Part shown: one piece after another, positions 9,001-15,000 of the stretch
Position numbering within the stretch: position 1 is the first letter of the stretch
How the letters are laid out: the number at the start of each line of letters is the position of its first letter
From: Elusimicrobiota bacterium
GTDB lineage: Bacteria > Elusimicrobiota > Elusimicrobia > Elusimicrobiales > UBA9959
DNA length: 18,547 nt
NCBI GenBank assembly: GCA_037137395.1
Contig: JBAXKK010000052.1
Span: 1 to 18,547, forward strand
Direction of reading: 5' to 3'
Made by a program: the position numbers

Positions 9001-12000
9001 GGTTTAAAAACCTTCCCGCTCTGCTTTTGTATACCGCAACCGAGGTTACTATCCCCGCGCCGCCCTTTCCTGGGCGCCGGTAGAAAACACCTTGTAATCG
9101 ATATGGCTGAAGATATTATCACGCCACTCGATATCAGCAAGATATTTTTCCTCGATCCGATTTCCCATTATCTGCTCATAGAGCCCTATAAAGCGGTTGG
9201 TGTGCTCTATAAAACGCTTGGTGGAATAAGTCTTGGCCGTGCCAACGGTCATCAGGAAAGCCCAATCCGAGGACATACCCAGCACAACCTCTCTGGCGCA
9301 CTGATTAAGCGCGCGTTTAAGGATACCATCGGCGTTCGGGAAGCGGTTGGCCATATTTACCATACGCTCCACTCCTTTATGCAGATGCCGGTACATCCAG
9401 TCGTTGGAAGCATTGAGCCAGACTTCATTGTAGCCTTTGTCCCCCCATGAGGACATGGACGGCTGTATCATCTGGTTGTCGGGGTGCCTTTCCAGATATT
9501 CGCTCGGCGTGATCATCTTGACCGTATTCTGGTCGTAATGAAGTTTTTTGAACAGGTACTCAAGGAAATCGGGACCCTCGTACCACCAATGACCATAAAG
9601 CTCGGCGTCATACATTGATACGACAACCGGCTTTCTGCCGAGAAAATGATTCAGGTGCTCCACCTGGCGCTCGCGGTTAAACATGAAATTACCGGCGTGA
9701 CTGGCGGCCATCTCTCGCGCTTCGGCGGGATTATAAGCGGCCTTCTCGTTTAAGCCTACTTTGCCGGTGATCTTGTAGTATTTCATGCCGATATTGCGCC
9801 TGACGCCGTCCTGGTGCAGATACGGCTTCACATAGTCGTATTCCAGGTCATAGCCAAGATCGCGATAAAATTCTCGGTACCGGTGGTCGCCTGGATACCC
9901 CATCTCGGCGCTCCACACCTGGTGCGCGGATTCCATATCGCGGCTGAAAGCTGCGACGCCGGAAGGGCAATAGACCGGGGCGTACACGCCGTAGCGGGGC
10001 CTGGGACTGCCGTATATTATGCCGTGCGTCTCCAGAAAAAAATACCGGATGCCGTTAGCTTTTAAATAGACTTCGTCGCCCGGGTTATAAGCGCACTCCG
10101 CCAGCCACATACCCCTGGGGCCGCGGCCGAAACGAAGTTTGTAATCATCAGCCGCTATCTTTACCTGAGCGTAAACGGCTTCTTTACGAACCTCAAGCGG
10201 CAGGAAGCCGTGGGTGGCGCCGCAGGTGATGATCTCAAGTTTGCCCATGTCCTGAAATTTTTTGAAGCCTTCCAGGATATTGCCGTGGTAGTAATCCTCG
10301 TAGAGTTCGCGAATGCGCTTAAATTTGCGCTCATACATTTTAGCGACTTCATAAAACTGGGTGTTGCGGTTGCGGATAACTTCCTTTTCCGCGAGTTCAA
10401 GGCGCTGGTTAAAATAGCGGCGGAAGCGTTCGCGCAAAAGGTCGTCCGTCATCATATTGCAAAGAGGCGGGGTCAGCGACATTGTGACGCGGAAATCCGT
10501 ATTCTCGGAGGTTAGCCGCTCGTAGACGTCAAGGAGCGGGATATAGGTTTCGCACATCGCCTCAAAATACCAGTCTTCCTCCAGAAAATCCTCATATTCC
10601 GGATGGCGGATGAAGGGTAAGTGCGCGTGCAAAACCAGTGCAAGGTAACCTTTTTCTTTATTTTCCATCGGTCCTTTTGTGGAACTGCTAAGATTGTTCG
10701 ATCTTTAAACGACCAGTCAGTTAATCAAATCAATTTTACAGCTGACGAGCTGATTATCGATCCGGTTGTAGTATTCGTTTACTATTACGAAGTCTTTCTG
10801 GTAACCACGATTGAAATCTGACGGGAATCGGACTCGTCTTTCGACACAGCCTTAACCGGCAGGTCCATATTTCCGTCAGGCAGCGCGAAGCGCATGGAGA
10901 AAGTACCGTCCTGATTCAGCGTGACCTTGCGCCCGGCGACGGTAACAGAAGCGTCCGGTTCCGTGGCCCCGTAAAGGATCAATTCGCAGTCGGCCACCAG
11001 CCAGAATTTTTTCTCAGCGGCTGCCGGCCTGACCAGCGTCTGAGAGGACATGGAGCTGACGCCCCAGGATGAGGCTCTGGAGAATACCGAGCGAAGCATT
11101 TCCCAGCGCTGCGCCAGAGATTTGGCGACCTCGCCTGAACTTTTACCCGTGTACTCAACTCCTGAGATCTGCAGGAGCTTGTCAAACTCGGTGGAGACCG
11201 ACATCCACTTCTCATCCATGACTTCTGAAACCCGGCTGGTCGGAAGATTTACGGTATTGGTTTTCACTATGCCGATAAACCGGCCGTCCGGCAGGACAAG
11301 GCCAACCTCGCAGCAGTAAGTCCGGCCGCCATCCTGGACGTTGATATACCAGCTCCTGGCGTCGAGCATCGCCGGGATGTCAAAATACTTCTGCCCATCT
11401 CCGGCGCCCTGACTGACGTCGTAGACGCGGATCACATGGCGTGCCTTTTCAAAAACATCGTGTCCGTGTTCGCGGGCTATATCGGCTTTGGAATTGTCGG
11501 TTATTTCCCAATAGATAAACATCCAGTTGGGATCGCGCGGCAGCAGGGCCGCCTCGGTATTGCCATAAGACTCCGGCAGCGATTTATAGTCGGAATCGGG
11601 CTTATTGTTCTTATTGTTCAACTGCCCTGATGACGTCATGATTTCCCCCCTAAACGTGTATAGGTCGCGCCCGGCGCGGGATCCGGCATTTTGCCCCCGC
11701 CCGAACGGCAACAACTTCTATTCAAAACATATGTTAGCTCAGCCTGAAAAAAGCGTACAATTCTGGCTTTCACGCCAGCCCCACTCCCCTTGTACTATAA
11801 ATTACTATACAAAAATTGACCGTAAAAAAGCAAAAGCACCCTGAAAACATGTTTAGTCACAATTCTTGACTGAAGCTTGTGATCAAATTTTATGGCTTTT
11901 GTTTCAGTAACTACATAAACGCTATACCCTTTAGCAACAGCTTTAGCCGCGTATTTTTTCTCCAGGAACCTGGGCAGGAATGCGCACATATTGCCCAGCC

Positions 12001-15000
12001 GCTTACGGATACCCGGTGAAACATTTCCTGTTCCGCTGCTGATAAGTTTCAGCCCCAAAACTTCCGAGGCAACCGCCGCGTCAGGGCCGTAAAAAGCGTA
12101 AACCCGGCCCACCGGAAAAAACATTATGACCGGCCTTTCCCTGAAACATTGCTGCCCGCTTTCTTCAAAATAAAACTCAATCCCGGAAAGAACGCTTTTA
12201 AAAAATACATATTGAGCCGCCAGGTTTGGGAAATAACGCGGCGTAACCAGTTTAGCCACACGGTTAAATTCGCCCATAAACCCGTGCTTCCCGGCCATGG
12301 CGCTTTTTAGTTTGTAAGAATGGGCGTAGTTAAAATGCGCCTGGTAGGAATTAAGGCTGCTGTTGGCTTTTGCCACCACCGTCGGGTTAAATTCTATCGT
12401 GTTGCCTTTTACCGCTATTTTTCCGACCCGCTTCAATTCGCGCTTGAAATTATTTACAACCCTTTTGCGAACCAGCATATAGCCGGGCCGCACAATATAA
12501 CCCAGAAAATCTATCCCGTTTGAGACCGGCGCGATATGCTGTTTTTGCGGGTGTATCGTCAATTCCAGATTTTTACCGACAAAATCCGCTATTTTTTCGC
12601 GCCATAAAGCCAGCTCCCCGCTGTTTTCGGAAAAAAGAATAAAATCATCGACATAACGGATATAGCGCTTAACCTTTAACTCGCGCTTAACAAACTGGTC
12701 CAGCTCGTTTAAATAAACATTGGCGAAAAACTGGCTTGTAAGGTTTCCTATAGGCAGACCGCGTTTGGCGACGGCGTTAAACAGCGTTTTATGCGGCGGC
12801 AGCATTTTAAGCAGCCCCGCGGCACCCCTGAAAATATAATTCCGGGTGCAGTCGTTGTTTATTATCGTCTCCGCAAGCCACAAAGCATCCGGGTGGGAGG
12901 TCCCGCGCTTTATCAGGTTTAAAAGTATGGCTTTATCTATGCTGACAAAATAATTCCTGATATCCATCTGCAGATAAAACGCGCGCCTGGTGCCGTTTGC
13001 CGTAACCTGGCGCGTCAATGTCTGACACCGCTCCACACCTTTATGAGTTCCCTTCCCTTTTCTGCACGCGTAGGAGTCAAAGATAAATTTCGGCTCAAAT
13101 ATTTTCTCAAGATAATCCACTAAAACATGATGGATAATCCGGTCTTTGAAATCGGCGGCAAAAATCTCCCTGAATTTAGGCTTTTTAACCACAAAACAGA
13201 CAGAACGGGCTGGCTGATACGACCTTGTTTTCAGCTCCCTCTCCAGGCGGACCAGATTCTCCTCCAGATTAATCTCAAAGCGCAGCGCGTTGATGGTATT
13301 CCTTTTTCTTTCGCGGCATTTAAGATAACATCTGTGGATATTGGAGAATGAAAACAAGTCGTCTTTGTTTTTCACGCGCCGGCGCGGACGCAACGGACGT
13401 AGTTGTTGTTGTTCTTATTGTCGTTGTTCACGTTGCCATTGTTGAAGTTCACGTTCCACGCGTTGTCGGAATTCGGCACATTAGCCCCCGCACTTTCCCG
13501 CCGTTTTTTAACAAAACGGGGGACCACCGGTCAACCAATCCTCCATGCAGGCCGGAAGGGTATTCCTGAATAACATACCCGGATTACATCCCGGGTGGCT
13601 GGGGCGCCCCGTGAATATGAGCTCGCTCCCTGTCCGCCTTAGGCGGACGGGGATTCTGGCTCCTCAGCCAACCATCGTTCTGTCCTGAGATTTCGATCAC
13701 CATTTTTATCAAACACTCAAATGAATTGAAGTTGGAAAATACCTTTAATTCCTTCGCTATCCTGGTCAGTATTTTCAGTTCTTCAAGCGATTCCCTGATC
13801 TCTGTCAGCGATCCTCGCTTATCCTGCTCCACATTAGCCCGCACAACCAGAATAAGAATCTTATGGGCTAAAGCCCTTATTTCAGAACCTATGGTATATT
13901 TATGGTATCTTGGAAACCCCCTGACGATTGTTTCCACATACACAGCCATGTCCATCGCTTTTTTATATATCGGAAGGTGTTCATATTGAGCCATAGTTAG
14001 CCTGATGGGCATAGCCTAGTGACTTCTTCCAAGGGGGCGGCCCCCTTGGAACCCCCAAATTACCGAATATAAGATCACGGGCCGGCGCGGACGCAACGGA
14101 CGTAGTTGTTGCCGCCCTTATAGCCGGCGTCCACGGCGCCATTGTAGAAGCGCACGATCCACGCGAGGCCGGAATCCGGCACATAAGTGGTGCTGGACCA
14201 GTAATAATCACTCACAGTATTCGGAAAATATGTGGGGTCTATGGCAGGACGCTGGTTCTCATAATTCACGATGCTCATCAGCTCTCTGATATTGGGCAGA
14301 CGCCAGTCTGAATAGCCGGCAAAACTTGATGCGCCTTGTAAGCCTTGACAATATGCCCCGGCAGTTTCCCAGTCGGTACCGGTTCCGCTATTACACCCTG
14401 CGGCACTGCCGTCTTGCGCCCACATAAGGCCTGTCCTATTGTCAATTGTTACAGCATCACCATTGATAGTACTTGATGAATAACTTAGCTGAGCTCCAGA
14501 CACAATACCAGCATCATCGGTAAATGTGGTGGCAAAGCTGGTTGTTTGACCGGTGTCGGGTAACTCATGGCTTGAACCGCCGCCTGCGCCTGCGTATGTC
14601 CCGGTTATGCCGAATATAGTGGTGCTGACCGCGATATTCTCCGCTTTCAAATCCGGGTCCACGGCTGATAGCGTAGTGGTCGAGTAATAACCGGCCATCA
14701 CCGTTTCAGTGCTGGCGTCCAGCGCAACCTTTTTAGCGCCAAGGATATGCGTTGTGCCATCAGCAGCATAAGCGCCGCCGACCAGGCAGGTGAACAAAAT
14801 CATAGGCAATAGCGCGCTTTTACTTGTTTTTAACATATTATCTCCTTAAATAGTAACGGTCCAACTACCGTTGCCGCCCAGTATTGCCCACTCTGTACCG
14901 CTAATCAGCCGTAATGTTATGGTGGCATAGGTTTCAGCCGCCACATTGTTATATATCGTGCCGCCCGCTGCTGAGTCCGCTATAGTGTAGCCGGTACCCG

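Follow-up and report, generated by a model that had tools for sequence, protein, structure and literature searches.

A diversity-generating retroelement of an Elusimicrobiota bacterium whose reverse transcriptase carries a MutS domain I tail with a degenerate mismatch motif

A diversity-generating retroelement (DGR) whose reverse transcriptase (RT) carries a MutS-like domain raises the question of how DGR cDNA takes the place of the variable repeat (VR) without being undone by mismatch repair, and matched natural variants are available for a simple deletion or binding test. Here we consider a window of 18,547 nucleotides, contig JBAXKK010000052.1 of an Elusimicrobiota bacterium (GCA_037137395.1), which holds a genuine DGR at 11795-14836 (Table 1). 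The element is chromosomal, with target, avd, template repeat (TR) and RT in that order on the minus strand, which is architecture B1. TR and VR form an ungapped 113-nt pair that is 81% identical, and 20 of the 21 changes from TR to VR (A>G 11, A>T 5, A>C 4, G>C 1) fall at TR adenines, with a hypergeometric p of 1.6e-11 for that number or more, given the 36 adenines of the TR. The VR forms the C-terminus of a target of C-type-lectin fold, the 15 AAY codons are in frame, and the VR differs from the TR reading frame at 15 amino acids. A preliminary description of this DNA had called the DGR complete and had counted 21 differences in 113 positions, 20 at TR adenines; all parts, the adenine signature and the same substitution counts were recovered here.

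Table 1. Coordinates of the element and its neighbours in the window.
Feature	Position	Strand	Details
DGR target gene	14075..14836	-	253 aa; Pfam Lcl_C (PF07603) E 3.8e-38, residues 129-250; C-type-lectin-fold C-terminus
VR	14075..14187	-	last 36 codons and stop of target
Putative IMH	14075..14102	-	3' end of VR; TR adenines all unchanged; single G>C vs IMH* at 14080
GC-rich DNA hairpin	14027..14051	-	11-bp stem with 3-nt loop; lies 23 nt downstream of VR
avd accessory gene	13584..14000	-	138 aa; bAvd 2.8e-13, above Pfam cut-off; start backed by alignment
TR	13372..13484	-	36 adenines, 15 AAY codons; 3' end overlaps GTG start of RT
RT	11795..13375	-	526 aa; RVT_1 2.4e-19 (residues 64-295); YVDD at 241-244 (12644-12655)
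Predicted MutS domain I tail (MSL-type) of RT	11846..12223	-	RT residues ~385-510; MutS_I 3.8e-8
Degenerate mismatch motif	12095..12109	-	RT residues 423-427
Clade-specific conserved insertion	12134..12181	-	RT residues ~399-414; two-strand hairpin in model
RT 3' end and island junction at 11836	11795..11836	-	RT codons 514-526 in host intergenic DNA
Secreted fibre-like protein gene	14846..16501	-	551 aa; directly upstream of target; NF053851 Bdello_MAT_N 6.9e-5, under cut-off
PorV/PorQ-family gene	16716..17699	-	upstream of DGR; NF033709 4e-53, above cut-off
Protein with T9SS-like sorting domain	17711..18283	-	190 aa; upstream of DGR; TIGR04183 at its cut-off

The target has an N-terminus that, judged by eye from its sequence, resembles a signal peptide, and its Lcl_C domain belongs to the family that we take to be the former DUF1566. 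The putative IMH is named from its position, and the hairpin downstream of it is likely to be the target-recognition stem-loop; the region 14005-14075 folds at -14.2 kcal/mol (z -2.5), with equal stability in 2 of 200 shuffles. The avd product also matches NF033474 (3.1e-15, 56 bits), under that model's cut-off of 80. Identity with a genome of the same genus (G001) spans 10786-11836 and ends at 11836, and G001 has no DGR there; the DGR sits on an accessory surface-protein island. The fibre-like protein directly upstream is possibly a stalk for the DGR target, and a pair of genes for a C-terminal-domain protein and an Lcl_C protein recurs on contig C137. The C137 Lcl_C paralogue was rejected as a present target (27 of 94 positions differ from the TR, just 14 of them at A), which bears out the preliminary description, and a candidate remote target on C147 was rejected likewise (19 of 64 differences, 10 at A).

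Judged from contigs, the element is fairly likely to be active in the sampled population. Contigs of four public runs were compared (X1, X2, X4 and X5), X7-X9 contributing too small a share. The contigs of X1 leave a gap at the VR (14103-14176) that is flanked by TR-adenine positions, and that of X4 restarts at 14196, which bears out the breaks previously reported at the VR for these two runs, but the TR is also broken in X1, at 13408-13422. Related TRs of other organisms cause breaks as well: the TR bin has a depth of 64-152, most other bins one of about 0-20. An X2 contig (14037-14578, 46 differences) does bridge the VR, as had been stated, but where at least 15 VR substitutions had been claimed, at least seven VR differences are found, those among the rows listed, six at TR adenines and one (14104) at a TR thymine. 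This thymine position, together with differences outside the VR (14251, 14288), led us to reject the X2 contig as proof of retrohoming. As for the earlier label "active-looking", intact genes and a contig gap fit activity, which contigs cannot prove.

The RT is intact and of the DGR class, with a catalytic YxDD in the form YVDD, and residues R240, Y241, D243 and D244 are invariant across 96 homologues. Its best PDB match is the reverse transcriptase of 8ub7 (E 2.4e-41; runner-up 5.5e-14), which we take to be the bRT of Bordetella phage BPP-1. Beyond the core, Pfam, profile and predicted fold together indicate that the tail, residues ~385-510, almost certainly adopts a MutS domain I fold. Pfam MutS_I covers residues 416-508 with an E-value of 3.8e-8, its 34 bits clearing the cut-off of 20.6, and a profile of the tail domain matches Taq MutS at 1.2e-13 and the host's MutS at 2e-13. 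The tail was modelled with a pLDDT of 89.8 and the full-length RT with a pTM of 0.82, residues 515-526 falling below a pLDDT of 50, and structure comparison (VIA) returned MutS/MSH chains at Z 12.8-10.1 (rmsd 2.1-4.2 Å over 101-114 residues) before the next listed row at Z 3.5. The domain is strongly basic, with a pI of 9.7 and 18 K/R against 9 D/E.

RT and MutS domain I form one ORF in the same frame, the domain lying downstream of the RT thumb, and contigs of X1 and X2 cross the junction without differences from the Elusimicrobiota contig. Alignments with RT homologues span 92-97% of the length. A chance or frameshift fusion with a fragment of the host mutS was rejected on the grounds of the single ORF, the full-length homologues and an intact host mutS on C9. 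MutS_I matches in this genome are confined to that MutS and the RT tail; the host MutS is full-length with an intact motif, and MutL is also present. The length of 526 aa had been ascribed to the fusion, and the fusion itself stands, but the last 13 codons (11795-11836) lie outside the domain, on host intergenic DNA shared with G001.

The part of the tail that would be expected to touch a mismatch is altered. Phe36 and Glu38 of E. coli MutS align to Val425 and Ala427 of the RT, such that Phe-X-Glu, to which a role in mismatch contact by MutS is given in the portion of PMC3384296 drawn on here, is replaced by Val-Tyr-Ala. The description of this domain as mismatch-binding is therefore not supported for the Elusimicrobiota copy. 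Glu is kept in none of the 13 proteins of its clade, while 64 of 87 other domain-bearing relatives keep Phe-X-Glu. Gln421 and Gly466 are also lost clade-wide (conserved elsewhere in 78/83 and 82/83, respectively), and this loss fits a lost DNA contact as well as a changed one, which counts against the nucleic-acid-binding reading given below. All 13 members share the insertion residues Y402, E405, Q408, F411 and R412, where 78-79 of 83 others have a gap, and the model places strands at 399-403 and 409-413. A neighbour-joining tree with 100 bootstraps, built from 119 of 120 RT cores (L036 was too short to include), resolves shallow clades only and gives the clade 100% bootstrap; its sister clade retains Phe in all members but one, and the domain is apparently gone altogether from a related clade (backbone support 31-50%). 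The separate Msl proteins of L002 and L003 are also without Glu. As judged by the neighbour-joining tree, the mismatch motif has been lost at least twice with the domain retained.

Loss of the motif might suggest that the domain is a decaying leftover without function in this clade, and in keeping with this, divergence in the domain outpaces that in the core (mean identity 57% vs 75%, lower in 71 of 78 pairs), and a related clade may, at the backbone support given above, have dispensed with it. However, domain divergence also exceeds that of the core in the wider family (50% vs 72%), the reading frame runs through the domain in all 13 clade proteins, of which one is shortened at its C-terminal end, and dN/dS of the domain against five clade relatives is 0.16-0.22, which indicates purifying selection and disfavours decay (RT core 0.16-0.29; with domain dS at 0.8-2.3, the farther values are near saturation). 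The tail is very likely still functional, and we consider a vestige highly improbable.

What, then, might the tail do? By established DGR biology, the RT, together with Avd, would copy TR RNA into cDNA and make errors at adenines; this cDNA would then replace the VR and so diversify the ligand-binding end of the secreted target, which probably tips the upstream fibre protein. A tail needed for mutagenesis itself is not what the relatives suggest: TR/VR pairs of the domain-less L008, L010, L011 and L077 are still adenine-specific, and the domain is probably dispensable for adenine-specific mutagenesis. The fraction of TR adenines changed was 0.43 where the motif is intact (pair found at 19/20 loci), 0.48 where it is degenerate (9/9) and 0.40 without the domain (33/45), with no difference by domain state (p 0.54 and 0.08, kin not being independent, in a test that is weak under an all-or-none repair model); this counts against the role favoured below.

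One proposal is that the tethered domain binds the mismatch-rich heteroduplex of cDNA and VR and thereby keeps host MutS away from it; more mutagenised VRs would then escape repair. The host does encode MutL and a MutS whose motif is intact, deletion of mutS in B. ovatus raised VR mutagenesis 5-10 fold according to the sections of bioRxiv 2024.11.15.621889 consulted, and the 64 of 87 motif-keeping proteins in the wider fused family may mark such a role as ancestral. With Val and Ala at both contact positions and neither a clamp nor an ATPase part as in MutS, this is an unlikely role for the present tail; moreover, in the same sections the three Msl-bearing Bacteroides DGRs are the ones of low activity, which their authors relate to transcription, and Wu et al. 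2018 (PMC5758913), in the part used here, report MutS as unnecessary for the Bordetella phage DGR. The joint loss of Gln421, Phe425, Glu427 and Gly466 under purifying selection, with gain of a conserved insertion, could instead point to a structural module in which domain and new hairpin pack on the RT thumb or Avd and stabilise the complex without binding nucleic acid, and the pTM of the full-length model agrees with this. Such a module also seems improbable, given the strongly basic surface of the domain and the many RT-Avd DGRs that have no MutS domain.

We favour, at roughly even chances, an explanation of the whole as a DGR whose tethered tail is a non-canonical, basic nucleic-acid-binding aid, and assign much the same even chance to that role of the tail taken separately. 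The tail would be the known MSL accessory module in tethered form, which in this clade has most likely ceased to be a Phe-X-Glu mismatch sensor and may keep the complex of the RT attached to the intermediate of cDNA and target DNA while integration proceeds, helping efficiency. A MutS domain I fold can bind DNA without Phe-X-Glu, because MSH3 binds DNA loops without it (PMC11912836, as excerpted); the Tyr-Lys pair named there for MSH3 is not apparent at the RT motif. A more specific, and rather doubtful, possibility is that the anti-repair or heteroduplex-capture arm ancestral to a large DGR lineage was remodelled in this clade, through loss of Phe-X-Glu and the GFP glycine and gain of the beta-hairpin, and now recognises another retrohoming intermediate, for example an RNA:cDNA hybrid or the VR-side hairpin. 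If so, sister RTs with the motif intact, with the motif lost and with no domain at all would offer a natural series in which to dissect cDNA integration. A 2026 preprint states the retrohoming mechanism as unknown, and repair was suppressed artificially there.

Fusions of this kind are common among relatives. Whereas only five other proteins with RVT_1 and MutS_I had been noted, at least 82 of 120 homologues among the matches listed carry PF00078 and PF01624 (hand count, this RT included), our own profile finds the MutS domain in 100 of the best 120, and the fusion occurs at 30 of 80 related genome loci. Far from being three oddities, RT-MutS_I fusions make up a large group. The nearest labelled homologues among the matches listed are from Elusimicrobiota. 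Where the RT has no such domain, a search of five genomes for a MutS_I gene next to it was negative in every case, but three of these genomes gave no MutS_I match anywhere and may be incomplete. A literature search returned nothing pertinent on Elusimicrobiota DGRs and no binding or genetic data on MSL or RT-MSL proteins.

The fusion has been known since 2018, and the Elusimicrobiota locus adds no new design: in the portion available to us, Wu et al. 2018 (PMC5758913) list three DGR RTs with C-terminal MutS_I (FP929063.1, FR695874.1 and AMWB01060384.1), and the novelty that the preliminary description had left conditional on such catalogues is not supported. The name Elusimicrobiota does not occur in that portion of the paper and its supplement. 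The RTs listed there share with ours a MutS_I-bearing extension, of ~150 aa in theirs, and two of the three loci have, as here, the order TG-avd-TR-RT(-TG), architecture B1, VR class CLec2, DUF1566 targets and RT genes of ~1.5 kb; the present DGR has one target, not two. The degenerate motif is a feature of the Elusimicrobiota RT, which is set beside those three by their domain listing. MSL/Msl accessory genes (architecture D of Wu et al. 2018; Bacteroides Msl, bioRxiv 2024.11.15.621889), as described in the same portions, are separate genes of 112-283 aa that lie next to avd and RT and encode a MutS domain I on its own, whereas here the domain is fused to the RT and the locus falls outside architecture D. 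Glu is absent also from three stand-alone MSL rows of that supplement, but the Elusimicrobiota tail has lost Phe too and has a clade-specific hairpin insertion. Compared with MutS/MSH6 and MSH3, the tail has the same domain I fold, by prediction, but lacks Phe-X-Glu and the connector, clamp and ATPase domains, and is fused to an RT. The closest solved relative of the RT core, that of 8ub7, shares the avd-TR-RT order, an IMH-like end and a downstream hairpin. In contrast, the 8ub7 RT has 328 aa without a MutS-like tail and the Elusimicrobiota RT 526 aa with one, on a chromosomal island with a secreted Lcl_C target.

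The element in the window is a genuine, textbook diversity-generating retroelement (DGR), whose parts follow one another on the minus strand as listed below.

Features of the DGR in the window
Feature	Position	Strand	Remarks
Target gene	14075-14836	minus	first in DGR order
avd	13584-14000	minus	second, after target gene
Template repeat (TR)	13372-13484	minus	third, after avd; 36 adenines
RT gene	11795-13375	minus	fourth, after TR
Variable repeat (VR)	14075-14187	minus	113-nt ungapped partner of TR

TR and VR differ at 21 positions over 113 nt (A>G 11, A>T 5, A>C 4, G>C 1). By chance, at least 20 of the 21 would fall at TR adenines with a probability of 1.6e-11. 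The target, avd, TR and RT arrangement proposed in the preliminary description is confirmed. The sole non-adenine change, at 14080, lies within the 3' end that resembles an initiation-of-homing (IMH) sequence, and an 11-bp GC-rich hairpin (z -2.5) follows downstream of the VR at 14027-14051. The TR holds 15 AAY codons, and 15 residues are altered between TR and VR. A renewed Pfam search recovered Lcl_C, bAvd, RVT_1 and MutS_I in the DGR proteins, in agreement with the earlier assignments, and among solved structures the closest to the RT was PDB 8ub7 (2.4e-41), which scored far better than group II intron RTs. Two other TR-like stretches in the host genome, on contigs C137 and C147, were rejected as current targets on account of many non-adenine changes, as had already been concluded for the C137 Lcl_C gene. 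Several RT homologues (P0040, P0057, P0063 and others) have an Lcl_C match beside RVT_1, which is probably the TR translated in frame ahead of the RT by gene callers; the TR frame in the window ends exactly over the GTG start of the RT (13372-13375).

The C-terminal tail of the RT is a MutS domain I. It matches Pfam MutS_I at 34 bits against a cut-off of 20.6, and a profile built from the RT tails of the family matches the MutS of the host at 2e-13, Taq MutS at 1e-13 and E. coli MutS at 1e-10. The AlphaFold2 model of residues 369-526 has a pLDDT of 89.8, and solely MutS/MSH chains were among the Foldseek matches listed for it; in an unbiased structure search of 48,161 chains five reached Z of at least 8, the four entries listed being of the MutS family (Z 10.1-12.8), and the next row below them had Z 3.5. 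Pfam, profile and predicted fold thus uphold the fusion first proposed. Its origin as an assembly accident was ruled out, since close homologues match the window RT across 92-97% of its length and contigs from the public runs X1 and X2 show no differences from the window across the junction. The last 13 residues of the RT are incidental, as the DNA from 11836 down is host intergenic sequence common to the same-genus genome G001 and these residues are unstructured in the model.

The Phe-X-Glu motif of MutS is described as stacking on and hydrogen-bonding the mismatched base (PMC3384296). In the window RT the places of E. coli MutS Phe36 and Glu38 are held by Val425 and Ala427, which makes the 'mismatch-binding' label of the preliminary description doubtful for this copy. 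Of the 13 nearest proteins (identity 62-100%) none has Glu and three have Phe; the other 87 domain-bearing proteins among the best 120 homologues have Phe in 72, Glu in 72 and both in 64. Neighbour joining of 119 RT cores gives the window's clade 100% bootstrap support, and all members but one of its sister clade retain Phe, beside Glu, Lys or Arg. The motif is also missing from another, separate clade of fused RTs (L051, L057, L059, L061, L062, L063 and L066; 100% bootstrap), most of them labelled Gamma- or Betaproteobacteria, in which it has degenerated independently. In the window's clade Gln421 and Gly466 have been lost as well, and a conserved insertion (residues about 399-414) has been acquired, which is absent in 78-79 of 83 other sequences and forms two strands in the predicted model. 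The domain is nevertheless retained by purifying selection, with dN/dS of 0.16-0.22 against five clade relatives (RT core 0.16-0.29), the farther values being rough at a dS of 0.8-2.3 in the domain comparison; that the tail is a vestige is very improbable. Glu is also missing in three stand-alone MutS-like (MSL) rows visible in the supplement of Wu et al. 2018 and in the separate Msl of loci L002 and L003; its loss is not peculiar to the window's clade.

The domain appears dispensable for adenine mutagenesis as such, since adenine-specific TR/VR pairs are present at the domain-less loci L008, L010, L011 and L077. Related RTs of Omnitrophota and Planctomycetia stop after the thumb, and no MutS_I gene turned up beside the domain-less RTs of five genomes, which may be incomplete. 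The proportion of changed TR adenines was 0.43 with an intact motif, 0.48 with a degenerate one and 0.40 without the domain, with no significant difference. The tail may be a structural module, which we regard as unlikely. As a mismatch shield it is no likelier: the 5-10 fold rise in VR mutagenesis reported for B. ovatus without mutS (bioRxiv 2024.11.15.621889) makes such a role attractive for motif-intact copies, but the Msl-bearing elements of that preprint are the low-activity ones. No passage on msl deletion was found in the accessible part of its text, PMC8632793 only lists MSL in the passages covered, and the insertion-repair reporter in which MutS was without effect (PMC12875486) is itself not a MutS substrate. 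The host genome has both MutS and MutL. Ahead of the structural, shield and vestige readings we place, at about even chances, a tail that would act as a tethered, non-canonical nucleic-acid-binding aid at the integration step; the domain is basic (pI 9.7), and the reported binding of loops by MSH3 without Phe-X-Glu (PMC11912836) implies that a basic domain I can retain a DNA role after motif loss. The DGRs of L002 and L003 have a separate Msl without Glu just upstream of avd (L002:4924-5184 and L003:66-332) in addition to a fused RT-MutS_I that retains Phe-X-Glu; the two forms are thus no simple replacements for each other.

Activity of the element was assessed from assembled contigs alone, and on these it is plausible, and rather probable, that the DGR is currently active. 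Run X1 may be where the DNA of the window comes from; its pieces 13423-14102 (depth 11.4) and 14177-15000 (depth 9.6) are identical to the window, and the edges of the gap between them, 14103 and 14176, are both TR-adenine positions, as expected of within-sample VR variants. One identical 31-nt run common to TR and VR could cause the X1 break at 13407 in the TR; on the VR side it would be expected to end the piece near 14110, whereas 14102 was observed. The contig of X2 spanning the VR (depth 4.6) has 46 differences in 542 nt, some outside the VR, and so may be a diverged allele or relative; six of the seven VR differences listed are at TR adenines. The earlier 'active-looking' verdict fits the X1 break at the VR, but is weakened by breaks in the TR region of both X1 and X2, where depth is 64-152 from the repeats of other organisms, and by the X2 differences outside the VR.

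The DGR and the fibre-like, PorV-family and sorting-domain genes upstream of it look like an accessory surface-protein island, because the flanking DUF4912 gene belongs to the core set (39 of 41 genomes), the 3.9-14.2 kb beside it contain other genes and none of the island in five of five same-genus genomes, and a close RT (59-64% identity) occurs among 60 relatives only in G019, G011 and G021. The GC content of RT and avd is 45-46%, against 52% for the genome, and the nearest labelled RT homologues among the matches listed are from Elusimicrobiota, to which the host probably belongs as well. On the 3.2-kb contig C137 a 230-aa Lcl_C frame follows a fibre-like frame of 810 aa, the final 95 residues of which share 48% identity with the end of the 551-aa protein in the window; this short contig has no matching TR and no DGR, and the second such pair suggests that the target works together with its upstream neighbour. 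The spacer between the fibre-like gene and the PorV-family gene contains a 68-nt imperfect palindrome (16565-16632; 28-nt arms, 86% complementary), a REP-like dispersed repeat with copies on 18 or more contigs of the genome (best 40 of 45 blastn matches). Short degenerate heptamer-like runs at 2216-2332 and 3607-4287, in inverted pairs and one within the MFS gene, are possibly another dispersed low-complexity repeat. The window ends in about 46 units of (CTGT)n (18362-18547), a real microsatellite or an assembly artefact; no other run of at least eight units was found in the genome. Positions 1-10668 carry housekeeping genes (radical SAM/DUF3362, RNase D-like exonuclease with HRDC, pseudouridine synthase, MFS transporter, serine dehydratase alpha-like, two GH57 enzymes) and a 261-aa ORF without a Pfam match (5598-6383); the HRDC is part of the exonuclease and lies 10 kb away from the RT.

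The RT-MutS domain I fusion is common. The RVT_1 and MutS_I Pfam pair occurs in 82 (hand count), and the domain by family profile (E<=1e-3) in 100, of the best 120 of 7,989 RT homologues. The fusion is present in 30 of 80 genome loci kept from 547 found (four of the 30 with weak domain scores), 25 of which combine an Lcl_C target with an adenine-specific TR/VR pair; their labels include Elusimicrobiota, Thermodesulfobacteriota, Nitrospirota, Gammaproteobacteria and KSB1, the KSB1 locus L049 having five VR copies inside 8.8 kb. What remains of interest at this locus is a domain remodelled clade-wide while under purifying selection, of which we found no description in the literature searched, most subscription papers and the supplements of later catalogues and of bioRxiv lying outside that search. 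The fusion itself has been known since 2018, and the novelty first claimed for it fails: Wu et al. 2018 (PMC5758913), who defined the MSL accessory family, describe a MutS_I motif in the C-terminal extension of three related DGR RTs, entered in their Table S1 as FP929063.1, FR695874.1 and AMWB01060384.1. For the second and third of these the table gives TG-AVD-TR-RT-TG, B1, CLec2 and DUF1566, with the same core as the DGR of the window.
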